Shown: piece by piece, positions 2,800 through 64,000 of the stretch
Numbering within the stretch: position 1 is the stretch's first letter
How the letters are laid out: the number at the start of each line of letters is the position of its first letter
Origin: Spirochaetia bacterium
GTDB taxonomy: Bacteria; Spirochaetota; Spirochaetia; SP-2023
DNA length: 64,000 nucleotides
Reading direction: 5' to 3'
NCBI GenBank assembly: GCA_965225855.1
Contig: CBDDCK010000005.1
Location: 384,001 to 448,000 of the forward strand
Program-made: the position numbers and the translations under genes
The notes under the pieces: model-generated
Seen by the model: only the letters and a program-made list of their open reading frames with translations
What the model was told of the DNA's origin: nothing
Databases searched by the model: none

Positions 2800-2980
2800 T
2801 AAGCCTTTTGATTGGCATTGATTTTTAACCACCTTACAACACAAAACAACACTAAGACACAAAAAAACTTACAAAAAGCTTGTATAGGCCTTGACGCAAC
2901 ACCCCCCCTAGCAAAATGGGGATTTACACACTAGCCCGTATGGGTTGGTTAATCTTTATCCCTTGTTGGAGGTATTGCTT
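2800..2980 (+). promoter_or_regulatory. Conserved ~180-bp upstream module of the lipoprotein family (copy 1)
   Basis: aagccttttgattggcat...ttgacgcaacacccccctagcaaaat...ggaggtattgcttATG recurs near-identically at about 19068-19278, 44168-44367 and, on the minus strand, 63868-64000. Confidence 0.85.
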
Positions 2981-4741
2981 ATGTATAAGCACAAACTATT
3001 TTTATTGCCATTAGCATTGCTACTGGCCTTTATGGCCTTGGCCTGCGCACCACCCGATGACGATGCGCCGTCTTCTGGGCCGTCTAAGCCGACTATCAAT
3101 AACGCCATCTACAATGTTGGCACGGCTATCTTAACCGTACAAGGCACTAACTTAAGTCCTACAGAAGCCCAAATCCAAACCATCGTAGTAGATGGCATAG
3201 CTTTAGATTCCTATACTGCAGATGACCCAGCCACTGGGCCAGATAGTAACGGTCTTGCAAAAGGTAAGTACCGTATTAAAAGCGATGGCACAGCGCTTTG
3301 GCTTAGACTTACCGATCGACATAAAGCTACTCTGAATGGCAAGAAAGGTATGGATAGCAATGGTCTAAAAAAAGGGTTGCTTACTAGCTCTGGTGCTTGG
3401 GCGGGTTTAAATACAGCCAAAGACTTAACCGTTAGTAATGTACCCGGTAAGCAGTCGCCTAAGCAAGCCAAACAAGCTGAACAAGCCGAACAAGTCGAAC
3501 AAGCCAAACAAGCCGAACAAGTCGAACAAGCCAAACAAGCCAAACAAGCCAAACAAGCCAAACAAGCCAAACAAGCCAAACAAACCGAAGAAGTCGAAGA
3601 TAAGCAGTCTAAGACCGAAACTGAAGATCAGTCGCCTAAGCAAACCGAAGCTGCAATTACCGGTGCAAGCTACCATGTTGGCACGGCGCTGTTAACCTTG
3701 CAAGGTACTGACTTAGCTAGTGCGACCCAAGCCCAAATCCAAACTATCAGGGTAGGAAGCCGAACAAATGGTGTAGCCTTAAGTTCCTATACTGCAGATG
3801 GCACAGCCACTGGGCCAGATAGTCGTGGTCTGGCAAAAGGTAAGTACCGCCTGCATAGCGATGGCACAGCGCTTTGGCTGAAACTTACCGATCAACATAA
3901 AGCTACTCTGAATGGCAAGACAGGTATGGATAGCAATGGTCTAAAAGATGGGTTGCTTAGCGTTGGCTCTGGTGCTTGGGCGGGTTTAAATACAGCCAAA
4001 GACTTAACCGTTAGTGGAAACCCCATAATTACCCGTGCAACCTATGATGTTACTTTAGGCTTGTTAGAGCTTACAGGTACTAATTTACCAAAAGCAGTTG
4101 CAGGCTGGGAATTGAGAAAATTGACGCTTGTATCCGGTGATGGTAGTAAGAAATACACATTACCCCAGCACTCAACTGTAGGCGCAAACAAAGCCACAGG
4201 TAGAATAGCAACTGCAACAAAATTATCTATTATTTTAGAGGGTAGTGTAAAAGCCAAAGCCGATGCTATATTGGTTAACGATGGTGTTCGTGATGCTAAT
4301 GGTGCATACAACCTGGAAGCAGCAGCAGGATTTGCAGGTGGTAGGGCAGCAGACACAACCAACCCTATTACCGTTAGTGGGTATACCATCGCCACAGCAA
4401 CCTACAATGCTAATACAGGCGAGTTAATTATTTATGGTAGCGGTTTACCGACAACAATTGCAGAGTGGGACTTTAGCAAATTGACGATTGTATCCAGTGA
4501 TGGTACTAAGAAATACACATTACCCCAGCACTCAACTGTAGGCGCAAACAAAGCCACAGGTACTATAGCAGCTATAAAAGGCTTAAAGATTATTTTAAGC
4601 GGTAGTGTAAAACAGAAAGCCGAAGCTATAATGCAGGAGAGTTTTATTTCATCATACAAACTTGAAGCAGCAGCAGGATTTATACCTAGTAGTCCAGAAG
4701 AAGTTATTCTTACTATTTTTATTAGTAGGGATTCTAAGTAA
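2981..4741 (+). CDS. Surface lipoprotein, repeat-domain family copy 1 (A-linker-A-B-B)
   Basis: GGAGGT RBS, signal peptide ending in lipobox FMALA-C22, two ~125-aa A domains, a Q/E/K-rich linker and two ~120-aa B domains. Paralogous to the ORFs at 19279, 44368 and 63867. Confidence 0.9.
   Translation: MYKHKLFLLPLALLLAFMALACAPPDDDAPSSGPSKPTINNAIYNVGTAILTVQGTNLSPTEAQIQTIVVDGIALDSYTADDPATGPDSNGLAKGKYRIKSDGTALWLRLTDRHKATLNGKKGMDSNGLKKGLLTSSGAWAGLNTAKDLTVSNVPGKQSPKQAKQAEQAEQVEQAKQAEQVEQAKQAKQAKQAKQAKQAKQTEEVEDKQSKTETEDQSPKQTEAAITGASYHVGTALLTLQGTDLASATQAQIQTIRVGSRTNGVALSSYTADGTATGPDSRGLAKGKYRLHSDGTALWLKLTDQHKATLNGKTGMDSNGLKDGLLSVGSGAWAGLNTAKDLTVSGNPIITRATYDVTLGLLELTGTNLPKAVAGWELRKLTLVSGDGSKKYTLPQHSTVGANKATGRIATATKLSIILEGSVKAKADAILVNDGVRDANGAYNLEAAAGFAGGRAADTTNPITVSGYTIATATYNANTGELIIYGSGLPTTIAEWDFSKLTIVSSDGTKKYTLPQHSTVGANKATGTIAAIKGLKIILSGSVKQKAEAIMQESFISSYKLEAAAGFIPSSPEEVILTIFISRDSK
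3464..3600 (+). repeat. 9-bp coding tandem repeat (CAAGCCAAA family) in the lipoprotein linker
   Basis: Six perfect CAAGCCAAA units at 3527-3580 (QAK x6), preceded by QAE/QVE variants. Confidence 0.95.
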
Positions 4742-4909: not shown

Positions 4910-5024
4910 CATAGCAAGGCACTAAAAAATTTATTAAGCCTACAAACTTTTTTTAGTAATAGCTTTGAACAAAAGCTTTGAACAAACCCCTTACAATAAT
5001 TATTACCAGAACGTTGCCATAACC

Positions 5025-5143
5025 ATTAAGAGAGTCTCTTAATGCCTAACAAGAGAATTTCTTAATAACTAACAACAGAGTTTCTTAATGCCCAACAACA
5101 GAGTTTCTTAATGCCCAACAACAGAATTTCTTAATGCCTAACA
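5025..5143 (+). repeat. ~23-bp tandem repeat array (about 5 units)
   Basis: Unit aacaacagagtttcttaatgccc with variants; a related array sits at 61445-61545 on the minus strand. Confidence 0.9.
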
Positions 5144-5150
5144 TGGGTAT

Positions 5151-5690
5151 TTATTCATTGGTTTTTTGCTGTTGCAATTGACTGTGCTTTAAGGGGCTAC
5201 CATCTAGTAATGTAACACGCTGCCCAATATCGACGTTGTGCCGCTCAAACCAACCTTGATTGAGCTCTAAAGCAAAGCGCATCGGCCAGCGCGAAGCTAT
5301 GGTAGTAGTGTCCAAAGGTTGCATATGGTAGATTTCACAGATTATGCCATCTTTATCTAAATAGGCTATGCTAAGGGGTATCAGCGTATTCTTCATATAA
5401 AAACGCAAGACTTTATCTTGTGGGAAGCTAAATAGCATGCCGTGCATTTCTGCCATAGATTGCCGGTGCATTAGGCCTTGGGCTTGTTGTTCGGGGCTAA
5501 GGGCTAGCTCGGCCTCTATGGTTTGCTTGCCCACTTTGAGCTCAATACTTACTAATGGCTCTTTTTTGCAGGCCCATAGAACCAACAGCAAACTAATGGC
5601 CCATAGGGCGTCTATTAGGGGCTTTATTGGCAGTGGCCTTTGGGCCAGTGTGCAGCTAGCAGAATAGCACAATAGATGGTTGTGATTCAT
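5151..5690 (-). CDS. DUF192 family protein, probable lipoprotein
   Basis: AELALSPEQQAQGLMHR...GMLF...FYMKNTLIPLSIAYLD...ALELNQGWF; LWAC lipobox-like motif. Start uncertain. Confidence 0.9.
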   Translation of the reverse strand: MNHNHLLCYSASCTLAQRPLPIKPLIDALWAISLLLVLWACKKEPLVSIELKVGKQTIEAELALSPEQQAQGLMHRQSMAEMHGMLFSFPQDKVLRFYMKNTLIPLSIAYLDKDGIICEIYHMQPLDTTTIASRWPMRFALELNQGWFERHNVDIGQRVTLLDGSPLKHSQLQQQKTNE

Positions 5691-16987: not shown

Positions 16988-17239
16988 AAAGCCTCCCTAA
17001 ATATAGCTGCTTTAGCCATCAAGCTAAAAATCCCGCTAGTCTACTTATTTTCAAACATAAATCAAGACTTTTTAAAAATATTTAGGGGGGTGCTCGGTTT
17101 ATAAATTTCTAACAAAAGCAAAATTTTGCTTGTTGGTCAAATTGCTGATTGCTGAATGTATTGCTCTTTTTTGTTATATGTTTACAATTCAGCAGAGTTT
17201 TGTACTAAAATTTTATTTTTCATATTAGAAGCAATTTCA

Positions 17240-17800
17240 ATGACTATGATATTTACAATACTGAACCGAATGTTGCCTGATCGCAATTGGTTATTGGCCA
17301 TATTATTTTTATTTGTGTTTTTCGGCATTATTTTACCCCCAAAAATTTATCCTGAGAGTTTCGGCTACACAATGAATCGCATTGTTGAAGTCGATGTCTA
17401 TATCGATCCTACAGATTATTTTTATTACTATTATAGTTTTAACTATTTAAATAGAGCTTTAAAGTTAGATGGCCTTGAACGCAAGATACAGTCTCTTAGT
17501 ATGTTAGAAGTAGAACCTAACATCGATAATTACTATCATGATCAAAAGCCAAAAATATATCTGGTCATTATTTACCAGCACAATTTGGATAAATATCAGG
17601 AAATGTTGGAATTAATCAACTTTCGAGAGCATTTAGTTTTGTGGATTATTTCCCCTGAAGGGGAAAAATTGGTTAATCCTACGGATTTTAATTTAGATGG
17701 AATGAGTTCGGCATCGATTGTCGATAGCTTCCATCAAGAGTTTCGTTCCTATATTTTGCCTAGGATTTTTACTTTGTATACAAATAGAGATAGGGTCTAA
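17240..17800 (+). CDS. Hypothetical membrane or exported protein
   Basis: Open frame with a hydrophobic N-terminal segment; no recognisable family; start uncertain. Confidence 0.55.
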   Translation: MTMIFTILNRMLPDRNWLLAILFLFVFFGIILPPKIYPESFGYTMNRIVEVDVYIDPTDYFYYYYSFNYLNRALKLDGLERKIQSLSMLEVEPNIDNYYHDQKPKIYLVIIYQHNLDKYQEMLELINFREHLVLWIISPEGEKLVNPTDFNLDGMSSASIVDSFHQEFRSYILPRIFTLYTNRDRV

Positions 17801-18009
17801 CTTTTTGAGTCTGCTTCCTAGCTTTTTCGAAATTTTTTATGGCAATAATATCTTGAAATTTTATGCTTACTTTTTTATATCGCAGCCGCCATATTTCTGG
17901 CCTAGCCGATGGAAATGGTTATTTGGAAAGTAGTCATTTGTTTTCCCATTTATTGGAGCATTGGCTGCGAGGTACAGCACAAAAATTCGGTTGTAGCATC
18001 AAAAGTTGC

Positions 18010-18241
18010 AGATATTGATGGTTTTGGCCTTATGCCGTACAGAAATGAGTTATATAGGTCTGGCTTTTGTTCCAGCGTGATTCCCCAATTGCCGTTGTGT
18101 GAATATGCTTTGGCTGAATTACAGTGGCTAATGACGCAGGCCAATAATAAAGCCAGTGCGGAGGATGATTTCTACGGTCAGCCACATCAAAGTTGGCAGG
18201 AAATTTATTCTGCTTGAATAAAGAAGATATTTACCGTAAGG
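18010..18241 (+). repeat. 232-bp direct repeat, left copy (putative long target-site duplication)
   Basis: Matches 21703-21934 (offset 3693) with two substitutions seen; ends immediately before the element's TGA. Confidence 0.95.
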
Positions 18242-18418
18242 TGAAAGAGGACATGATAACTTAACGGGATAAGACGTGATAACTCGGGATTTTTTGGAAC
18301 AAATGGGAAGGTAAAAATTGGCTTACTTTCCAAAATAAAAAGGTAAAAAAATTTTTGTTTTTCGGCATATGGGTTGTCGGCAACAATATGCTTTATATCA
18401 TGGTAACGGGCCACGGTC

Positions 18419-18465
18419 TCAAAAAGCTAGTAAGGTTTTGACTGAAAACCTTACTAGCTTTTTGA
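18419..18465. terminator. 21-bp perfect stem-loop with A/T tails, possible bidirectional terminator
   Basis: tcaaaaagctagtaaggtttt-gactg-aaaaccttactagctttttga; second copy at 43879-43923. Confidence 0.7.
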
Positions 18466-18701
18466 TTGGCAACCTAGGGATTTTCCAACAAACCCGATCG
18501 ACACTGTATGGCCAAAGTTGTTTGCAACGAGCGCTTTCGCTATATACCCACAAGAGCCGCAAGGTAAAGGCCAAAGGGCTTCAGATAAAAAAAGACTAAA
18601 ACATAGCCAAACGATTATTAATGATAGGCTGGTAAAAGAAATTTTAGCTAAGGCTAAAGCAGAACAATACCGATAAATAAATACCCCAGCCCCCTCTAAC
18701 T

Positions 18702-18820
18702 ATAGAATTACCTCCCACCTATTTAATAGAATCGACCTAAATCTATCAATAGAATTACCTCCCACCTATTGATAGAATTGACCCAAATCTATCAATAGAT
18801 TTACCTCCCACCTATTAATA
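18702..18820. repeat. Alternating ~23-bp tandem array (A-B-A-B-A)
   Basis: A = atagaattacctcccacctatt, B = atagaatygaccyaaatctatc; each monomer has ATAG...CTAT ends. Confidence 0.9.
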
Positions 18821-18822
18821 CC

Positions 18823-19030
18823 CTAGTCTTTAATGAAATTTTCTACATCGGCACATAATCCAGGACCTATACAACAATCATCGGAAATCGTTGGCCAAAT
18901 TCTGAACGCCCCTGAAAGAATAATATCCCGTTTTCATTTTCATTAAATGTTTCACCTTTTGGAGATTGCCCCATAGTGTAATTGAGGTGTAATCAAGTAT
19001 TTTATTCAATTCTACACTTTGCCACCCCCC
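18823..19030 (-). pseudogene. hsdS: Fragment of a type I R-M specificity subunit (HsdS target-recognition domain)
   Basis: Manual translation in three pieces: GWQSVELNKILDYTSIT / MGQSPKGETFNENENGILFFQGRSEFGQRFP / DDCCIGPGLCA. These match the MGQSP...FQG..EFG..FP...CCIGRGL type of HsdS TRD, with frameshifts and an internal deletion. Confidence 0.75.
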
Positions 19031-19278
19031 AAAGGCCAAACAAAGGCCAAACAAAGGCCAACACCCTTAAGCCTTTTGATTGGCATGGATTTTGAACCAC
19101 CTTACAACACTAAACAACACTAACACACAAAAAAAGTGCCCAAAACATAAAAAAGCACAAAAAAACTTACAAAAAGCTTATATAGGCCTTGACGCAACAC
19201 CCCCCTAGCAAAATGGGGCGCTGTACACTAGCCCGTATGGGTTGGCTAATCTTTATCCATTTGTTGGAGGTATTGCTT

Positions 19279-21399
19279 ATGTATAAGCACAAACTATTTT
19301 TATTGCCTGTAGCCTGGCTACTGGCCTTTATGGCCTTGGCCTGCGCCCCACCCGATGACGATGATGCGCCATCTTCTGGGCCGTCTGGGCCTGCAATCAC
19401 CAGTGCAAGCTACGATGTTGGCACGGCTCTGTTAACCGTACAAGGTACTGACTTAAGTCCTACAGAAGCCCAAATCCAAACTATCACGGTAGCTGGCGTA
19501 GCCTTAAGTTCCTATACTGCAGATGACGATGCCACTGGGGTAAATAGTAACGGTCTTGAACAAGGTAAGTACCGTATTAAAAGCGATGGCACAGCGCTTT
19601 GGCTTAGACTTACCGATCGACATAAAGCTACTCTGAATGGCAAGGTGGATAGCAATGGTCTAAAAAAAGGCTTGCTTACTAGCTCTGGTGCTTGGGCGGG
19701 TTTAGATACAGCCAAAGACTTAACCGTTAGGAATATACCCGCAGCCGAACAAGTCGATGATCAATCGCCTAAGCAAACTGAAGATAAGCAGTCGCCTAAG
19801 TTACCCGAAGCCGAACAAACCGAAGAAGTCGATGATGAATCGCCTAAGCAACCTAAAGACAAACAAGTCGAACAAGCTGAAGAAGAGTCGCCTAAGCAAC
19901 CTAAAGCTGAAGATCAGTCGCCTGAAGCTGCAATTACCGGTGCAACCTACAATGTTGGCACGGCGCTGTTAACCGTACAAGGTTCTAACTTAAGTGCTAC
20001 AACTGCGACCCAAGCCCAAATCCAAACCATCACGGTAGATGGGGTAGACTTAAATTCCTATATTGCAGATGGCACAGCCACTGGACCAGATAGTCGCGGT
20101 CTTGCAAAAGGTAAGTACCGCATTAAAAACGATGGCACAGCGCTTTGGCTTTACCTTACCGATACCGATAAAGCTACTCTGAATGGCAAGGACGGTATGA
20201 ATACCAATGGTCTAAAAGATGGGTTGCTTAGCGTTGGCACTGGTACTTGGGCGGGTTTAGATACAGCCAAAGCCTTGGCCGTTAGTGGTAACCCCGCACC
20301 CGCAATTACCAGTGCAACCTATGATGTTGGTACAGGCGAGTTATATATTAGAGGTGTCAAGTTACCGAAATTATTTGCAAGATGGGACTTTAGCAAATTG
20401 ACGCTTGTATCCGGTGATGGTAGTAATAGATACACATTACCAAGGCACGCAACTGCAGGTGAAAACACAGCCTCAGGTTCTCGTGTAGGTACAACCTACT
20501 TAAGTATTACTTTAAGCGGTAGTGTAAAAGCGGAAGCCGAGAAGATACTGGTTAACGATGGTGTTCGTGATAATAATGGTGCATACAACCTGGAAGCAGC
20601 AGCAGGATTTGCAGGTGGTAGCGCAGAAGACACAAGTAACCCTATTACCGTTAGTGGGTATAATATCATCAGCAAAGCAACCTACGATGCTAATACAGGC
20701 GAGTTAATTATTTTCGGTATCGGTAAACGTTTACCGGAAACAGTTGCAGAATGGGACTTTAGCAAATTGACGCTTGTATCCGGTGATGGTAGTAAGAGAT
20801 ACACATTACCAAGGCACGCAACTGCAGGTGAAAACACAGCCTCAGGTTCTCGTGTAAGTGCAACATTCTTAGCGATTACTTTAAGCGGTAGTGTAAAAGC
20901 GGAAGCCGAGAAGATACTGGTTAACGATGGTGTTCGTGATGCTAATGGTGCATACAACCTGGAAGCAGCAGCAGAATTTGTATCTGGTAGGGTAGCAGAA
21001 ACCAGCAACCCTATTACCGTTAGTGGCTACGTAAGCCAGATCGAATACGTATTATACACAACTATTAATGGCCAGTTAACTATTAGAGGTACGAGGTTAC
21101 CGACAGCAGTTGCAGATTGGGACTTTAGCAAATTGACGCTTGTATCCGGTGATGGTAGTAATAGATACACATTACCCCGGCACTCAACTGTAGGTGAAAA
21201 CAAAGCCACAGGTTCTAGTGCAAGTGGAACAAACTTAGTGATTACTTTAAGCGGTAGTGTAAAAGCGGAAGTCGAGAAGATACTGGTTAAGGCTGGTTTT
21301 CGTGATAATGCTGGTGCATACAACCTGGAAGCAGCAGCAGAATTTATATCTGGTAGTCGAGAAGACCTAAAAAATGCTATTAAAGTTATAGATTGGTAA
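19279..21399 (+). CDS. Surface lipoprotein family copy 2 (A-linker-A-B-B-B)
   Basis: Same RBS, signal peptide and lipobox as copy 1; two A and three B domains. Confidence 0.9.
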   Translation: MYKHKLFLLPVAWLLAFMALACAPPDDDDAPSSGPSGPAITSASYDVGTALLTVQGTDLSPTEAQIQTITVAGVALSSYTADDDATGVNSNGLEQGKYRIKSDGTALWLRLTDRHKATLNGKVDSNGLKKGLLTSSGAWAGLDTAKDLTVRNIPAAEQVDDQSPKQTEDKQSPKLPEAEQTEEVDDESPKQPKDKQVEQAEEESPKQPKAEDQSPEAAITGATYNVGTALLTVQGSNLSATTATQAQIQTITVDGVDLNSYIADGTATGPDSRGLAKGKYRIKNDGTALWLYLTDTDKATLNGKDGMNTNGLKDGLLSVGTGTWAGLDTAKALAVSGNPAPAITSATYDVGTGELYIRGVKLPKLFARWDFSKLTLVSGDGSNRYTLPRHATAGENTASGSRVGTTYLSITLSGSVKAEAEKILVNDGVRDNNGAYNLEAAAGFAGGSAEDTSNPITVSGYNIISKATYDANTGELIIFGIGKRLPETVAEWDFSKLTLVSGDGSKRYTLPRHATAGENTASGSRVSATFLAITLSGSVKAEAEKILVNDGVRDANGAYNLEAAAEFVSGRVAETSNPITVSGYVSQIEYVLYTTINGQLTIRGTRLPTAVADWDFSKLTLVSGDGSNRYTLPRHSTVGENKATGSSASGTNLVITLSGSVKAEVEKILVKAGFRDNAGAYNLEAAAEFISGSREDLKNAIKVIDW

Positions 21400-21702
21400 G
21401 TAGGGTTTGGTTGTTGCAACGTTTGCATTTGAAAATTGCAACCTTGGTAAGTTTTTTAGCAAGGTTGCTTTTGCCAATTATAGCCTTGGTATGGAGAAAA
21501 TACCAAGGCTGTAAAAAAATTTATTAAGGCTACAAATTTTTTTGTCAAGGCTGTAAATTTTTTTATTAAGGCTGCTTTTGCCAATTCCAGCCTTGGTAAA
21601 TTTTTTTATCAAGGTTGCTTTTGCCAATTATAGCCATTCTGGAAAGTAGAAAAAAATCGAGTTATCACGTCCGATGGCACAAAGTTATCACGTCCTGCAT
21701 CA

Positions 21703-21934
21703 AGATATTGATGGTTTTGGCCTTATGCCGTACAGAAATGAGTTATATGGGTCTGGCTTTTGTTCCAGCGTGATTCCCCAATTGCCGTTGTGTGAATATG
21801 CTTTGGCTGAATTACAGTGGCTAATGACGCAGGCCAATAATAAAGCCAGTGCGGAGGATGATTTCTACGGTCAGCCACATCAAAGTTGGCAGGAAATTCA
21901 TTCTGCTTGAATAAAGAAGATATTTACCGTAAGG
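21703..21934 (+). repeat. 232-bp direct repeat, right copy
   Basis: Starts immediately after the terminal CA at 21701-21702; near-identical to 18010-18241. Confidence 0.95.
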
Positions 21935-22037
21935 ATTGGCAGCAGGCTCAACGCTATTTGCGCAAACATCCTATCTTCGGTATTAAACTTTTATTACAGC
22001 CCAAGAAGAGGGAGTCTAAGCCCATTCCCTTTTAAAC

Positions 22038-22724
22038 TTACCGACCCAAATATTGTAAAATTTTTGATTGGATTGTATCTCGGTTTTGGTCAGCATTTAA
22101 GCAGTGGATTTGCATATCTGGGGCAATTTGGCGAAAGTGTTGGATAACATCTAAGTAGGCTTGATGTACACGAGTGAGAAAACCGATAGTTTCAAAAATC
22201 TCTGTTGGGCAATGCTCTTTGGCTTCGCGCTGGGCAATGCGTTGGGCTGCTTTCTCGGCGGGTATATCCATATAAATAAAATACTGCGGTATAGGAAAAT
22301 GGCGATTTAATTGCCAAATTTGGGCCAGCGGTGTGCTTTGGCCTTGATAGACTAAAGAAGAAAATAAATAGCGTTCTGAAATACAAATATAGCCGTTTTG
22401 AATTTGTTTGGAAATCACCTGTATATGTTGGGCACGATCATCTGCAAAATACTGGGGGAGATTATGCCTTTCTGTCATAAGTTCGGGACTATCTGCTTGC
22501 TTTTGCAACAAAAAACGAATCTGCTGGCCAATTGGCCCTGAACTGGGCTCTGTGCTACGCTCACAAGCAATATTTTGCTTTACGAAATATTGTTCGAGCA
22601 AACGAGCTTGGGTTGAGCTGCCCGAGCCATCAATTCCTTCTATTACGATAAAATTTTTTATTATGGTAGGGTGCTCATAGCCATAGTTTAGCTGGGAAAG
22701 TTGTTGAGTAAAACTTTGAATCAT
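22038..22724 (-). CDS. tmk: Thymidylate kinase
   Basis: FIVIEGIDGSGSSTQ, EPS, FADDRAQH, SERYLFSSLVYQ, EIFE. Confidence 0.92.
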   Translation of the reverse strand: MIQSFTQQLSQLNYGYEHPTIIKNFIVIEGIDGSGSSTQARLLEQYFVKQNIACERSTEPSSGPIGQQIRFLLQKQADSPELMTERHNLPQYFADDRAQHIQVISKQIQNGYICISERYLFSSLVYQGQSTPLAQIWQLNRHFPIPQYFIYMDIPAEKAAQRIAQREAKEHCPTEIFETIGFLTRVHQAYLDVIQHFRQIAPDMQIHCLNADQNRDTIQSKILQYLGR

Positions 22725-22729
22725 CTGCG

Positions 22730-23623
22730 TTATTTATGTTTTTGCAACAGGCTGCGAAAACCGTTATAAGGTTTATCTGCCTGCGAAAATAGTTGGAGTA
22801 AAACATCATGAAGCTCTGGCGCGCTAGCTAATACCGAGTAGGGAAAATCTTTTTGTGTGCCGTATAAATCCGTATATTTGCCGCCAGCCTCTTCTAAAAT
22901 TAAGCAAGCTGCAGCTACGTCATAAAGGTTTAAGCCAATTTCCCAAAAACCATCATAAACTCCGGCTGCCACCAAACAAATATCCAAAGCGGCTGAACCC
23001 AAACGCCGAATATCGCTGACATGCGGCAGTATATAACCTAAATATAAATAGTTATTTGGCTGGATTCCCGCGCGCAAACAACCAAAACCGGTAATTAGTA
23101 CAGAACTAGCCAGTTGATTTTGCGGGCTTTCTTTGGGCTTTTCTTCCTGCAAACGCTTGGGCTCTATCAATTGGTAGCTTGAATCATTGCTAGTTTGCAC
23201 CCCATAATGCCAAGCTCCGCAACCGCGTTCGGCCATGTATAATTCAGCTAAAGCTGGCCCATAAACGGCTGCCAAAATAGTTTGGCCATTATGTTGCAGA
23301 GTAATGCTCACGCTGTAGTAAGTAAAGCCTTTGACAAAGTTTACAGTACCATCAATGGGGTCTATCAACCAACAATACTCTTCTTGTAACTGCGTTTTGT
23401 CCAGCTTCTCACCAAACTCCTCGCCTATGATTTTGTGCTGGGGAAATTGCGTTTGAATTTGCTGCCGAATAAAATGCTCTACATTTTCATCGGCTTCCGA
23501 AACCAAATCCCGCACGGTATGGTTTTTAGAGCGGACAGCTAGCCCAGCTAAATCCTTGCGGAATTGCAGGCTAAGCTGTCCAGCAGAAATAATCAATTGT
23601 TCTAAGAAAATGCGAAATTCCAT
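22730..23623 (-). CDS. suhB: Inositol monophosphatase family protein
   Basis: DLVSEAD, IGEE, WLIDPIDGTVNF, RRLGSAALD, YDVAAACLILEEAGG. Confidence 0.9.
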   Translation of the reverse strand: MEFRIFLEQLIISAGQLSLQFRKDLAGLAVRSKNHTVRDLVSEADENVEHFIRQQIQTQFPQHKIIGEEFGEKLDKTQLQEEYCWLIDPIDGTVNFVKGFTYYSVSITLQHNGQTILAAVYGPALAELYMAERGCGAWHYGVQTSNDSSYQLIEPKRLQEEKPKESPQNQLASSVLITGFGCLRAGIQPNNYLYLGYILPHVSDIRRLGSAALDICLVAAGVYDGFWEIGLNLYDVAAACLILEEAGGKYTDLYGTQKDFPYSVLASAPELHDVLLQLFSQADKPYNGFRSLLQKHK

Positions 23624-43460: not shown

Positions 43461-43677
43461 TGGAAAACTGTAATTGTTTGGTAGAAAACTCACTGCTAAA
43501 TTTTAAGTGAGTCTTTTTTGAATGAAATATGAACAAATGTTGCCTTTGGCAAAAATAAGCCCCCACCCCAACACCAAACCAATAGCTGCCCCACCCCCAA
43601 CCAACACCCCAAAGCAACAAACCCGATCAACATTGTATTGCCAAAATTGTTTGCGTGAAGAGCCCCGACTAAATAGT

Positions 43678-43949
43678 TGATCCGGAACATGATAACTGAA
43701 CGGGATAAGACGCGATAACTCGGGATTTTTTTGGGGACAAATGGAAGGTAAAAATTGGCTTACTTTCCAAAATAAAAAGGTAAAAAAATTTTTGTTTTTC
43801 GGCCTATGGGTTGTCGGCAACAATACGCTTTATATCATGGTAACGGGCCACGGTCTCAAAAAGCTAATAAGGTTTCTGAAAAAAGCTAGTAAGGTTTTGA
43901 CTGAAAACCTTACTAGCTTTTTTGATTGGCAACCTGGGGATTTTCCAAC
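43678..43949 (+). mobile_element. Second copy of the element's left-end block, upstream of lipoprotein copy 3
   Basis: TGATCCGGAACATGATAACT...GACGCGATAACT followed by about 230 bp nearly identical to 18242-18490. No matching right end seen after copy 3. Confidence 0.8.
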
Positions 43950-44367
43950 GAGGCTGTGGCAGTCTCTAAAAAAATCGCAAAAAATTGTATTGTATTATTT
44001 TGCTAAAAACTGGGCTGTACTGCGATACAAAAAACTCAAATTCTTATTCTTATACTTTGTGCCATGATGTTTCGTACGATCATACGCAACGCCCGGACTG
44101 CGTCTAGCGTATTACAAATTTTTACCCAAGGTATCTCAAGCAATCTCAAGGTATCTCAAATAATCTCAAGCCTTTTGATTGGCATGGATTTTGAACCACC
44201 TTACAACACTAAACAACACTAAACAACACTAAACATAAAAAAACTTACAAAAAGCTTACAAAAAGCTTGTATGGGCCTTGACGCAACACCCCCCCTAGCA
44301 AAATGGGGATTTACAGACTAGCCCGTATGGGTTGGCCAATCTTTATCCATTGTTGGAGGTATTGCTT

Positions 44368-46401
44368 ATGTATAAGCTCAAACTACTTTTATTGCCATTA
44401 GCCTGGCTACTGGCCTTTATGGCCTTTGCCTGCGCCCCACCCGATGACGATGATCGATCTTCTGGGCCGTCTGGGCCTGCAATCACCAGTGCAAGCTACG
44501 ATGTTGGCACGGCTCTGTTAACCGTACAAGGTACTGACTTAAGTCCTACAGAAGCGCAAATCCAAACCATCGTAGTAGATGGCGTAGCTTTAGATTCCTA
44601 TACTGCAGATGACCCAGCCACTGGGCCAGATAGTAGCGATCTTGCAAAAGGTAAGTACCGTATTAAAAGCGATGGCACAGCGATTTGGCTGAAACTTAAA
44701 GATCAACATAAAGCTACTCTGAATGGCAAGGTGGGTAGCAATGGTCTAAAAAAAGGCTTGCTTAGCGTTGGCACTGGTGCTTGGGCGGGTTTAAATACAG
44801 CCAAAGACTTGGAAGTTAGTAATGTACCCGAAAATAAGCAGTCTAAAGTATCCGATGACAATCAGCCATCTAAGCAAACTGAAGAAGCTGAACAAGACGA
44901 ACAAGCTGAAGAAGTCGAACAAGCTGAAGATAAGCAGTCTAAGACCGAAACTGAAGAAGAGTCGCCTAAGCAACCTAAAGCCGAAGATCAGTCGCCTGAA
45001 GCCGCAATTACCGGTGCAAGCTACCATGTTGGCACGGCGCTGTTAACCTTGCAAGGTAATGACTTAGGTAGTGCAACCCAAGCCCAAATCCAAACTATCA
45101 CGGTAGATGGCTTAGCCTTCAGTTCCTATATTGCAGATGCCACAGCCACTGGGGCAGATAGTCGCAGTCTTGCAAAAGGTAAGTACCGCATTAAAAACGA
45201 TGGCACAGCGATTTGGCTGAAACTTACCGATACCGATAAAGCTGCTCTGAATGGCAAGACAGGTATGGATAGCAATGGTCTAAAAGATGGGTTGCTTACT
45301 AGCACTGGTGCTTGGGCGGGTTTAGATACAGCCAAAGGCTTGGCCGTTAGTGGACACCCACCCACAATTACCCGTGCAAGCTATGATGTTGGCACGGCGC
45401 TGTTAACTGTACAAGGCACGAACTTAAGTCCTACAGAAGCCCAAATCCAAACCATCGTGGTAGATGGCTTAGCCTTAATTTCCTATACTGCAGATACCAC
45501 AGCCACTGGGGTAAATAGTAACGGTCTTGAAAAAGGTAAGTACCGCATTAAAAACGATGGTACAGCGCTTTGGCTTTACCTTACCGATCGACATAAAGAT
45601 GCTCTGAATGGCAAGACAGGTATGGATAGCAATGGTCTAAAAGATGGGTTGCTTACTAGCACTGGTACTTGGGCGGGTTTAGATACAGCCAAAGGCTTGG
45701 CCGTTAGTGGAAACCCCGCACCCGCAATTACCCGTGCAACCTACAATGTAAATACAGGCTCATTAAAGATTACAGGTACTAATTTACCAAAAGCAGTTAC
45801 AGGCTGGGACTTTAGGGAATTGACGATTGTATCCGGTGATGGTAAGAAGAGATTGACATTATCCCGGTATACAATAGGTTCTGCAGCAAGTGCAACAAGC
45901 TTAAAGATTAGTTTAAATAGAGCCAAAGCCAATGCTATATTGGTTAAGGATGGTGATAGTGATGATGCTGGTGCATACAACCTGGAAGCAGCAGCAGGCT
46001 TTGTACCTGGTAGTAGCGCTGAAGACACAAGCAACCCTATTACCGTTAGTGGGAATACCATCGCCAGCGCAGAATACAATCCTAATACAGGCAAGTTAAC
46101 TATTGTCGGTAAAGGTTTACCGACAACAATTGCAGAGTGGGACTTTAGCAAATTGACGATTGTATCCCGTGATGGTACTAAGAGATTGACATTACCACGG
46201 CACTCAACTGTAGGTGAAAACAGAGCCACAGGTACTGTAGCAGTTACAAAAGGCGTAATTATTATTTTAAGCGGTAGTGTAAAAACCAATGCCGATGCTA
46301 TAATGCAGGATCGTTTTGGTCATTACAAACTTGAAGCAGCAGCAGGATTTGTACCTGGTGGTCCAGCAGACCCAACAGTTGTTCTTACTAGGAGTTCCTA
46401 A
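44368..46401 (+). CDS. Surface lipoprotein family copy 3 (A-linker-A-A-B-B)
   Basis: Same RBS and signal peptide (lipobox FMAFA-C); three A and two B domains. Confidence 0.9.
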   Translation: MYKLKLLLLPLAWLLAFMAFACAPPDDDDRSSGPSGPAITSASYDVGTALLTVQGTDLSPTEAQIQTIVVDGVALDSYTADDPATGPDSSDLAKGKYRIKSDGTAIWLKLKDQHKATLNGKVGSNGLKKGLLSVGTGAWAGLNTAKDLEVSNVPENKQSKVSDDNQPSKQTEEAEQDEQAEEVEQAEDKQSKTETEEESPKQPKAEDQSPEAAITGASYHVGTALLTLQGNDLGSATQAQIQTITVDGLAFSSYIADATATGADSRSLAKGKYRIKNDGTAIWLKLTDTDKAALNGKTGMDSNGLKDGLLTSTGAWAGLDTAKGLAVSGHPPTITRASYDVGTALLTVQGTNLSPTEAQIQTIVVDGLALISYTADTTATGVNSNGLEKGKYRIKNDGTALWLYLTDRHKDALNGKTGMDSNGLKDGLLTSTGTWAGLDTAKGLAVSGNPAPAITRATYNVNTGSLKITGTNLPKAVTGWDFRELTIVSGDGKKRLTLSRYTIGSAASATSLKISLNRAKANAILVKDGDSDDAGAYNLEAAAGFVPGSSAEDTSNPITVSGNTIASAEYNPNTGKLTIVGKGLPTTIAEWDFSKLTIVSRDGTKRLTLPRHSTVGENRATGTVAVTKGVIIILSGSVKTNADAIMQDRFGHYKLEAAAGFVPGGPADPTVVLTRSS

Positions 46402-61444: not shown

Positions 61445-61545
61445 TTCTTGTTAGTTATTAAGAGACTCTCTTGTTGGGCATTAAGAAATTCTGTTGTTGG
61501 GTATTAAGAGACTCTCTTATTGGGCATTAAGAAACTCTCTTAATT
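61445..61545 (-). repeat. ~23-bp tandem array downstream of lipoprotein copy 4
   Basis: Reverse-complement units aacaagagagtctcttaatgccc and variants; same family and same gene-relative orientation as 5025-5143. Confidence 0.88.
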
Positions 61546-61689: not shown

Positions 61690-63867
61690 CTAAGAATTAC
61701 TAAGAATATTTTTTAGGTCTGCTGTACTACCAGGTACAAATCCTGCTGCTGCTTCAAGGTTGTATAGACTAAAACGATCCTGCATTATAGCTTCGGCTTT
61801 CTGTTTTACACTACCGCTTAAAATAATCTTTAAGCCTTTTATAGCTGCTACAGTACCTGTGGCTCTGTTTTCACCTAAAGTTGAGTGCCGTGGTAATGTG
61901 TATCTCTTCTTACCATCACTGGATACAATCGTCAATTTGCTAAAGTCCCACTCTGCAATTGTTGTCGGTAAACCGCCACCATAAATAGTTAACTCGCCTG
62001 TATTAGCATTGTATGATGCGTTATTGATAAAACCTGCATAACCTCTAACGGTAATCGGGTTATTGCTTGTGTCTGCTATGTTACCACCTGCAAATCCTGC
62101 TGCTGCTTCCAGGTTGTATGCACCATTATTATCACGAACACCATCGTTAACCAGTATCTTCTCGGCTTCCGCTTTTACACTACCCGTTAAAAAAATCGCT
62201 AAGCCTCTTGCATTTGCTCCAGAACCTGTGGCTGTGTTTTCACCTGCAGTTGAGGAGCGCCGGGGTAATGTGAATCTCTTATTACCATCACCGGATACAA
62301 TCGTCAATTTGCTAAAGTCCCAGCCTGTAACTGCTGCTGGTAACCTGCTACCAAAAATAGATAACTCGCCTGTACTTACATTATAGGTTGCACTGGTAAT
62401 TGTGGGTTCAGGATTACCACTAACGGTAATAGGGTTGCTTGTGTCTGCTGCGCTACCACCTGCAAATCCTGCTGCTGCTTCCAGGTTGTATGCACCATTA
62501 TCATCACTATCACCATTCTTAACCAGTATCTTATTGGCTTCCGCTTTTACACTACCGCTTAAAATAATATTTAAGCCTGTTGCACTTGCTTTAAAACCTG
62601 AGGCTAGGTTTATACCTGCAGTTGAGTGCCGTGGTAATGTGTAGCTCTTACTACCATCACCGGATACAAGCGTCAATTTGCTAAAGTCCCAGCCTGTAAC
62701 TGCTGCTGGTAAATTAGTACCTGTAATCACTAACACGCCTGTATTAACATGGTAGGTTGCACGGGTAATTGTGGGTGGGTTTCCACTAACGGCTAAGGCT
62801 TTGGCTGTATCTAAACCCGCCCAAGTACCAGTGCTAGTAAGCAACCCATCTTTTAGACCATTGGTATTCATACCTGTCTTGCCATTCAGAGCATCTTTAT
62901 CGTCATCGGTAAGGTAAAGCCAAAGCGCTGTGCCATCGCCTTTAATACGGTACTTACCTTTTGCAAGACTGCGACTATCTGGCCCAGTGGCTGGATCATC
63001 TGCAATATAGGAACTTAAGGCTAGGCCATATACCGTGATGGTTTGGATTTGCGCTTGGGTCGCACTACCTAAGTGAGTACCTTGTACGGTTAACAGCGCC
63101 GTGCCAACATTGTAGCTTGCACCGGTAATTGCGGCTTTAGGCGACTCCTCTTCGACTTGTTCGTCTTTAGGTTGCTTAGGCGACTGCTCTTCGGTTTCAG
63201 TCTTAGACTGCTTATCTTCGACTTCTTCAGCTTGTTCGACTTGTTTGTCTTTAGGTTGCTTAGGCGATTGATCATCGACTTCTTCGGTTTGTTCGGCTTC
63301 GGGTAACTTAGGCGACTCTTGTTCAGCTTGTTCGACTTGTTCAGCTTGTTCAGTTTGCTTAGATGGCTGATTGTCATCGGATACTTTAGACTGCTTATTT
63401 TCGGGTACATTACTAACGTCCAAGTCTTTAGGTGTATTTAAACCTGCCCAAGCACCAGAGCTAGTAAGCAAGCCTTTTTTTAGACCATCGCTATCCATAC
63501 CGGGCTTGGCCTCAAGAACAGCTTTATCGTCATCGGTAAGTCTAAGCCAAAGCTCTGTGCCATCGCTTTTAATACGGTACTTACCTTGTTCAAGACCGTT
63601 ACTATTTACCCCAGTGGCTGGGTCATCTGCAGTATAGGAACTTAAGGCTACGCCATCTACTACGATGGTTTGGATTTGCGCTTCTGTAGGACTTAAGTCA
63701 GTACCTTGTACGGTTAACAGAGCCTTGCCAACATCGTAGATGGCGTTATTGATAGTCGGCTTAGACGGCCCAGAAGACGGCGCATCGTCATCGGGTGGTG
63801 CACAGGCCAAGGCCATAAAGGCCAGTAGCAGTGCTACAGGCCATAAAAATAGTTTGAGCTTATACAT
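61690..63867 (-). CDS. Surface lipoprotein family copy 4 (A-linker-A-B-B-B)
   Basis: Same RBS, signal peptide and lipobox; two A and three B domains; opposite orientation to copies 1-3. Confidence 0.9.
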   Translation of the reverse strand: MYKLKLFLWPVALLLAFMALACAPPDDDAPSSGPSKPTINNAIYDVGKALLTVQGTDLSPTEAQIQTIVVDGVALSSYTADDPATGVNSNGLEQGKYRIKSDGTELWLRLTDDDKAVLEAKPGMDSDGLKKGLLTSSGAWAGLNTPKDLDVSNVPENKQSKVSDDNQPSKQTEQAEQVEQAEQESPKLPEAEQTEEVDDQSPKQPKDKQVEQAEEVEDKQSKTETEEQSPKQPKDEQVEEESPKAAITGASYNVGTALLTVQGTHLGSATQAQIQTITVYGLALSSYIADDPATGPDSRSLAKGKYRIKGDGTALWLYLTDDDKDALNGKTGMNTNGLKDGLLTSTGTWAGLDTAKALAVSGNPPTITRATYHVNTGVLVITGTNLPAAVTGWDFSKLTLVSGDGSKSYTLPRHSTAGINLASGFKASATGLNIILSGSVKAEANKILVKNGDSDDNGAYNLEAAAGFAGGSAADTSNPITVSGNPEPTITSATYNVSTGELSIFGSRLPAAVTGWDFSKLTIVSGDGNKRFTLPRRSSTAGENTATGSGANARGLAIFLTGSVKAEAEKILVNDGVRDNNGAYNLEAAAGFAGGNIADTSNNPITVRGYAGFINNASYNANTGELTIYGGGLPTTIAEWDFSKLTIVSSDGKKRYTLPRHSTLGENRATGTVAAIKGLKIILSGSVKQKAEAIMQDRFSLYNLEAAAGFVPGSTADLKNILSNS

Positions 63868-64000
63868 AAGCAATACCTCCAACAAGGGATAAAGATTGGC
63901 CAACCCATACGGGCTAGTCTGTAAATCCCTATTTTGCTAGGGGGGGTGTTGCGTCAAGGTCTATATAAGCTTTTTGTAAGTTTTTTTGTGTTTTTTGTGT

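Follow-up and report, generated by a model that had tools for sequence, protein, structure and literature searches.

A segment of 232 bp occurs twice in direct orientation in the genome of this Spirochaetia bacterium, and between the two copies lies a unit whose ends carry paired 12-bp boxes at a fixed distance from the terminus. The locus raises the question of which enzyme acts on these ends, and of whether the long repeat is the target duplication that this enzyme makes. The locus is part of the window, by which we mean the whole stretch of 64,000 nucleotides that was analysed (C5:384001–448000), and positions without a contig name refer to it. The whole genome (G000, 2.71 Mb in five contigs) was searched.

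The unit at 18242–21702 is a non-autonomous element of 3461 bp, it consists on the plus strand of a left (L) end, a cargo gene and a facing right (R) end. The cargo gene is its only long open reading frame (ORF), and it contains no transposase. The positions of the boxes and of the 8-bp termini, read directly in the sequence, are those given in the preliminary description. The L end begins with the octamer TGAAAGAG (18242–18249, plus strand), exactly where conservation of the flank stops. This is followed by box 1, GACATGATAACT (18250–18261, plus strand), and 23 bp after it by box 2, GACGTGATAACT (18273–18284, plus strand). The R end is inverted, on the minus strand it reads as the terminal octamer TGATGCAG (21695–21702), the outer box 1 (21683–21694) and the inner box 2 (21660–21671), both boxes being GACGTGATAACT. 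The spacer between the boxes is 11 nt long at the L end (taacgggataa) and reads ttgtgccatcg at the R end, in keeping with the earlier remark that the sequence between the boxes differs from one end to the other. A third end motif, ACTTTCC, is found at +84 from the L terminus (18325–18331, plus strand) and at +56 from the R terminus (21641–21647, minus strand), and it is conserved across L ends and across R ends.

With up to two mismatches the box has 11 matches in the window, compared with a mean of 2.43 and a maximum of seven in shuffled sequences, so that 11 is reached in none of 100 shuffles. The boxes reported previously account for six of these 11 matches, including those at 43686 and 43709. 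The latter two lie in a solo L end at 43678–43720 (plus strand), which represents a sub-family with the arrangement TGATCCGG, AACATGATAACT, 11 nt and GACGCGATAACT and is located upstream of the cargo gene at 44332–46401. The layout had been said to recur here, this is correct for the L end and incorrect for the two-ended arrangement, as there is no R end and there are no inverted boxes after this cargo gene.

In the L-proximal part of the element a perfect hairpin with a 21-bp stem is predicted by RNA folding at 18419–18465, with runs of A and T on its flanks that make it terminator-like in either direction (ΔG −34.5 kcal/mol, z = −7.07, none of 200 shuffles as stable). The hairpin may insulate the cargo gene from transcription coming from outside. 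A comparable hairpin is present at 43880–43925, and both sit in the L-proximal part of their elements. A search of 17000–23000 against Rfam gave only a weak chance match over the hairpin (mir-553, 26.3 bits against a gathering score of 82 bits), and a scan for promoters and terminators found sites no commoner than in shuffled sequence.

The genome contains 55 box doublets, 31 of the L type and 24 of the R type, one of the latter being the R end of a resident prophage that is described below. All 24 R ends start with TGATGCAG. The L ends start with TGAAAGAG (18 ends), TGATCCGG (six), TGATACGG (four) or single variants (three), and GACATGATAACT is box 1 in 24 of the 31. The spacing of the boxes is 23 bp in 24 of the 31 L ends and in every R end. 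In alignments of the 31 L and 24 R ends the frequency of the majority base is about 0.3–0.4 outside the terminus and at least 0.9 from the TGA inward, and the high conservation runs to about +110 in L ends and to about +60 to +100 in R ends. Of the 31 L ends, 27 have the ACTTTCC motif between +82 and +88; of the 24 R ends, 15 have it between +54 and +56. L and R ends form 13 facing pairs, 2620–3917 bp in length, each of which includes an open frame of 622–976 amino acids and none of which includes a transposase.

The two most similar elements are 92% identical over 2578 bp, so there is no sign of recent movement. The ends are conserved far better than the cargo genes, which hints at continued constraint on the ends and does not prove it. 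One flank is common to five L ends of the 43678 type, which makes them copies of a longer repeat rather than separate insertion events.

Five L ends and a single R end adjoin one and the same paralogous sequence, ...GAGCCCCGACTAAA(TAGT), at 43580–43677 of the window, C1:227251 and C5:1325, 172403, 847753 and 1477305. This flank is homologous to an element-internal region (18490–18570) and to the region upstream of a box-less cargo copy (2650–2735), it could reflect nested insertion, a hot spot or the copying of a composite repeat. Eight ends, including an R–R pair, are clustered within 36 kb at C5:1590138–1626052 of the same genome. In this cluster the 6-bp flank CCTAAT is found at both an R end and an L end, which are separated by 26.5 kb, and the cluster could be a composite unit or the product of rearrangement between elements.

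The doublet pattern has no match in our set of viral contigs and, in its G000 form, none in three congeners. A single match among metagenome contigs is an unrelated tandem array with a period of 23 nt (L015:4150–4330), this array contains the box-like GCGGACATGATAAC and probably represents iterons or a chance likeness.

The target duplication of the family is 6 bp. Perfect 6-bp repeats (CATAAC, GCTATA and ATTATA) flank three of the 13 adjacent pairs and directly abut the TGA...TCA termini. Among all 1485 pairs of ends there are five matches of the 6-bp flanks, compared with 0.36 expected, and all five are R–L pairs in the proper orientation, three of them adjacent and two lying 26 kb and 1.2 Mb apart; it is on these properly oriented matches that the value of 6 bp is based. 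As only three of 13 adjacent pairs keep the repeat, and partners are found 26 kb and 1.2 Mb away, either most copies have been rearranged or the adjacent pairs are not single insertions.

The preliminary description proposed an integrase-fold transposase as the cognate enzyme, and suggested a search of the proteome for the integrase core domain (rve) followed by inspection of the flanks of any match. The Pfam search of the genome for rve gives a single match, a 586-amino-acid ORF at C5:1273165–1274925 (39.3 bits against a cut-off of 32.6 bits), in which no further Pfam domain is found. Nine aligned sequences, that of the phage BcepMu among them, all have D144, D238 and E274, and the second aspartate and the glutamate are 36 residues apart; the protein is of the D,D(35)E class. 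This ORF lies inside a Mu-like prophage of the BcepMu type, about 36 kb in length (C5:~1257677–1293766). It matches the transposase family phrog_310 (E = 1.8e-70), and the prophage also includes a DNA transposition protein, phrog_296, identified by Pfam as AAA_22. Further PHROG matches in the prophage are to a repressor, an anti-repressor, the small and large terminase, portal, head protease, major head protein, tail sheath, tape measure and baseplate.

Between C5:1255 and 1297 kb box doublets occur only at 1257685/1257708 (plus strand) and 1293724/1293747 (minus strand), where they bracket the phage genes. The only candidate enzyme found, an integrase-fold transposase, agrees with the proposed enzyme class, and it is encoded within an element bounded by the same boxes. 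The prophage and the mini-element are alike over about 110 bp at the L end (18242–18348, about 107–110 bp, in the window) and over 69 bp at the R end (21634–21702, minus strand), and they have nothing in common further in. The prophage ends have ACTTTCC at +83 (L) and +56 (R). The left terminus of the prophage is degenerate and has no TGA, it reads TTGACGTT followed by an outer box, AAAATGATAACT, with three mismatches (C5:1257677–1257720). The transposase ORF and the right end are intact, and the prophage may be immobile in cis and yet still supply transposase. Searches of the genome with DDE_Tnp_1 and Y1_Tnp gave no match; with an assembly that is 94% complete, a further transposase gene could lie in the missing part.

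The same layout is found in related genomes. The closest named homologue of the transposase is 54% identical and comes from a record of Candidatus Haliotispira prima. In the congener G002 a prophage-like element of 27,765 bp contains homologues of the transposition and tail genes, with a transposase that is 54% identical. Its ends are TGACACAA, GACGTGACAACT, 11 nt and GACGTGACAACC on one side and TGACGCAA, GACGCGAAAACC, 11 nt and GACGTGATAACC on the other, ACTTTCC occurs at +84 of the L end and +56 of the R end, and its flanks (GGAATT and ATAATC) show no readable target duplication. A second congener, G001, has two prophage copies with a transposase that is 40% identical. The terminus, taken at one end as the point where the two copies cease to match, is TAAAGAGA, GAAGCGATAAAA, 11 nt and GATGCGATAATT. 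It had been allowed in the preliminary description that the boxes might never flank a transposase gene; they do so in G000 and also in two congeners, where the layout is kept and the boxes have diverged.

The transposase also matches proteins of transposable phages of Pseudomonas and Burkholderia, among them BcepMu (28.9% identity over 96% of the query). In the BcepMu record both ends start with TGAAG and have GATA at positions 14–17 and 37–40. Boxes are thus located at 9–20 and 32–43 in G000, G001, G002 and BcepMu, a register of 8+12+11+12, and this layout is a property of the transposase lineage. The BcepMu record names the enzyme a 'Tn552/IS1604 rve transposase', and passages of PMC2628397 describe BcepMu-type transposases as related to Tn552 and prophages with TG...CA termini.

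The resident prophage resembles BcepMu in the order of its genes, an rve transposase followed by an AAA+ transposition protein and the structural genes of a myovirus, and the ends resemble those of BcepMu in the TGA terminus and in two direct repeats at 9–20 and 32–43 at both ends. The element in the window differs from BcepMu in that it is 3.5 kb long, lacks both phage genes and a transposase, bears a lipoprotein-like gene of host type and has ends that are present 55 times, and the box is GACGTGATAACT here and GCGCGATATTT in BcepMu. This end architecture, being shared with BcepMu-type transposable phages, is already known; the new feature is the host-gene cargo on a BcepMu-type derivative. 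In the literature searched, including PMC10969869, PMC5977238, PMC2628397, PMC6776037 and PMC3145075, no description of a natural, amplified, transposase-less phage derivative with a non-phage gene was found.

Phage Mu makes a target duplication of 5 bp. The elements described here are like Mu and its laboratory mini-Mu derivatives in having several candidate transposase sites per end, TG...CA termini and a unit without a transposase, and in the predicted supply of the A and B proteins in trans. They are unlike Mu in that the family duplication is 6 bp and the Mu-specific transposase domains are absent, with only rve found by Pfam. According to passages of PMC3145075, Mu has several MuA sites per end, three at each with unequal spacing, whereas here there are two boxes and one different motif, and mini-Mu needs only its ends in cis, with MuA and MuB provided in trans. 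Mini-Mu elements are constructs, the elements here are natural and amplified. Phage Mu proper, with MuA as the enzyme, was rejected as the source of the ends on the 6-bp duplication, the two boxes per end and the Pfam result of rve only.

Tn552 of Staphylococcus is an autonomous resistance transposon and not a phage derivative. Each of its ends has two adjacent 23-bp repeats to which the transposase binds, and 6–7 bp are duplicated on insertion. A 7-bp target site is mentioned in the abstract of PMC12486829. The kinship with Tn552 proposed here comes by way of the BcepMu record and the passages of PMC2628397. A plasmid search matched 127 records, and neither Staphylococcus nor Tn552 is among the matches listed (12 records and the ten commonest genera).

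MITEs (miniature inverted-repeat transposable elements) and mobile insertion cassettes likewise have no transposase of their own, use the ends of an autonomous partner in the same genome, make a short duplication, reach many copies and can have a passenger gene. According to PMC10969869, resistance genes can be mobilised in trans by MITEs, E622 and IR148 being examples. The elements of the present family differ from these in that the partner is a transposable phage and not an insertion sequence or transposon, and in that the passenger belongs to a paralogous family of 116 copies.

The Tn7/Tn5053 (TnsB), IS21 (IstA/IstB) and IS1202 families, to which the ends had been likened, are similar in having a DDE transposase of the rve fold, several subterminal sites and an ATPase partner. 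As the cognate families they do not hold, as the A and B proteins match phrog_310 and phrog_296 within a prophage with head and tail genes, and the duplication is 6 bp. Tn7 and Tn5053 have TnsA/TnsC-type partners, a 5-bp duplication and at least three TnsB sites per end. They were set aside on the 6-bp duplication and the phage context. IS21 and IS1202 were rejected on the location of the only rve gene in a 36-kb prophage and on the mini-elements being without transposase.

We therefore consider it probable that 18242–21702 is a transposase-less mobile element with BcepMu-type ends, predicted to be moved in trans by the rve transposase of the resident prophage, and the elements of this kind are predicted to be natural hitch-hikers of the mini-Mu type that carry a host cargo gene. 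By analogy with the adjacent sites of Mu or Tn552 type, one transposase protomer would bind each box, two at each end. The ends would then be paired, the 3' ends after ...TCA cut and joined to the target with a 6-bp stagger, and the AAA+ partner would assist in the choice of target.

The preliminary description had paired this type of end with a duplication of more than 200 bp. The left copy of the duplicated segment (18010–18241) is the 3' part of a fragmented host ORF, the right copy (21703–21934) begins with AGATAT, and the two copies are 99% identical over 232 nt with two mismatches. A long duplication is found in one of the 13 facing pairs, that is in this element only, and the family value is 6 bp, so the association with the end type has to be given up and the 232-bp flanking repeat is likely to be a later rearrangement. 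In the congener G002 the segment is present once, within an ORF of at least 626 amino acids; the equivalent of 18009 runs straight into it, and the sequence from 21934 onward is continuous. The single copy in G002 means that the duplication is derived. At both positions where the copies differ, the right copy has the base found in G002.

The host gene is fragmented in G000, where ORFs of 214, 102 and 49 amino acids (17156–18217 and 21886–22035) stand against the single ORF of at least 626 amino acids in G002. The alignment of the host gene with the G002 ORF has a 1-nt gap where two reading frames part.

Contigs from public sequencing runs were compared with 17700–22200 of the window. In runs X1 and X2 the contig of the flank stops precisely at 18241 and the next one downstream starts 30 nt upstream of 21934; a k = 31 graph would break at these points if the segment continued in two ways. 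In run X3 one contig joins 18009 to 21703, which may come from a variant that lacks the element or from the k-mer graph collapsing the 232-bp repeat. In run X4, from another sample and with another organism label, a contig joins 18015 (...AGATAT) to the L terminus at 18242. The short side of this joint has 28 letters, three of them ambiguous, and is below our 31-letter rule; the X4 contigs do not cover 21777–21927 even at 85% likeness, and the right junction is absent from them. The same hexamer, AGATAT, stands directly after the R terminus in the present genome and appears to be the original target duplication. Run X5 has no contig matching 17700–22200. As signs of insertion polymorphism the X3 and X4 contigs are no more than suggestive.

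Together these observations suggest that the 232-bp duplication is secondary, a standard insertion having been rearranged afterwards. The first step would be an ordinary insertion at AGATAT, with a 6-bp duplication, in a common ancestor, and the second step, in this lineage, would put, between the L end and the AGATAT to its left, a further copy of the 226 bp from the right flank. One possible route is an unequal homologous exchange inside the element, between chromosome copies whose insertions stood 226 bp apart, and the other is replicative transposition to the sister chromatid followed by loss of one copy of the element.

The repeat could instead be a target-site duplication made in one step, with the ends joined to target strands 232 bp apart and the interval duplicated by repair. 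This would account for the arrangement, which is exactly target repeat, element and target repeat with no extra 6-bp repeat, and it is consistent with the single copy in the ancestral sequence. However, a long repeat is found in none of the other 12 facing pairs, the family value is 6 bp, and the L terminus in X4 stands straight after AGATAT, where the R terminus sits here, an arrangement (across the 28-letter joint) that a one-step duplication does not predict. We regard the one-step origin as unlikely.

It is very unlikely that the duplication, or the placement of the element, is an artefact of assembling a repeat-rich genome. The family does have dozens of copies, contigs of X1 and X2 do stop exactly at 18241, and one X3 contig does skip from 18009 to 21703. 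Against this, the two copies of the segment differ at two positions, and contigs that stop at 18241 and start again 30 nt before 21934 fit the k = 31 graph of a real repeat with two continuations. That the boxes serve a site-specific recombinase or a transcription factor, so that the units would be recombination cassettes or regulated genes instead of transposons, is scarcely credible: the genome has two genes of the tyrosine recombinase family Phage_integrase (PF00589) and every unit contains a gene of one kind, much as cassette systems do, but the doublets are inverted, their TGA...TCA boundaries are sharp and the 6-bp repeats flanking them vary, they bound prophages with a DDE transposase in G000 and congeners, their layout matches the ends of BcepMu, and all 55 sit in an end-like context, with none standing apart.

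A secondary rearrangement of an ordinary insertion thus remains our preferred reading of the repeat. The cargo gene (19279–21399, plus strand) encodes a repetitive lipoprotein-like protein of 706 amino acids; the ORF was listed from a TTG at 19189, and the consensus start of the family is the ATG at 19279. Pfam searches of the cargo and the neighbouring ORFs gave nothing above the cut-off, and the ESM Atlas scores are 0.75, an uninformative level. In 40 aligned paralogues the N-terminus has MYKLKLFLLPVALLLAFMALAC in common, with an invariant cysteine, and in the cargo protein it reads MYK..LLAFMALAC; by its sequence MYKLKLFLLPVALLLAFMALAC is a putative lipoprotein signal peptide. Four cargo-family copies, all repetitive lipoprotein-like genes, are present in the window, at 2945–4741, 19189–21399 and 44332–46401 on the plus strand and at 61690–63903 on the minus strand.

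The 5' region of the cargo gene matches 116 places in the 2.7-Mb genome. A cargo gene in the same orientation is located 232–1110 nt downstream of 30 of the 31 L ends, and the cargo 3' region lies just inside 20 of the 24 R ends. The four R ends without it include the R end of the prophage, the odd R–R pair and an R end that lies 774 bases into its contig. The family is specific to this lineage and almost confined to this genome, of 93 database matches 87 are to the genome itself, five are to metagenome contigs in ENA and one is to a distant 'beta strand repeat-containing protein'. With the cargo protein as the query, no match was found in three congeners.

Phage-type ends are kept by only about a quarter of the cargo copies. 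In a tree of 111 cargo 5' regions the end-bearing copies do not form a clade (24 changes compared with 27.0 ± 1.8, with 48 of 500 shuffles as low), and as they are not clustered, transposition is not demonstrated to be the driver of the expansion of the family. Just downstream of two box-less cargo copies, and in matching orientation, there are tandem arrays of a 23-nt unit (~...AACAACAGAGTTTCTTAATGCCC..., at 4995–5155 and 61450–61518); that the period of the arrays equals the spacing of the boxes may be a coincidence.

A more far-reaching reading, which we hold to be doubtful, is that phage ends were captured around a surface-lipoprotein gene, and that a prophage crippled at its left end and with an intact transposase scatters, duplicates and rearranges a repertoire of 116 members, the 232-bp duplication being the footprint of replicative transposition to the sister chromatid. 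If true, this would be a transposition-based system that diversifies surface proteins.

On the reading that we consider probable, that of a transposase-less element predicted to be moved by the prophage enzyme, the puzzling 232-bp 'target duplication' need not demand a new chemistry of transposition. Transposable phages are known as autonomous viruses and mini-Mu elements as laboratory tools, here there is a natural derivative with a non-phage gene. One transposase is associated with an end module of 43 bp whose layout is conserved from spirochaete-type prophages to BcepMu. The 2.7-Mb genome of this organism, otherwise almost without insertion sequences, contains the ends 55 times, and the finding explains its many rearranged repeat junctions. 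A resident prophage is thereby linked to the spread and rearrangement of the largest gene family of the genome, with its 116 copies.
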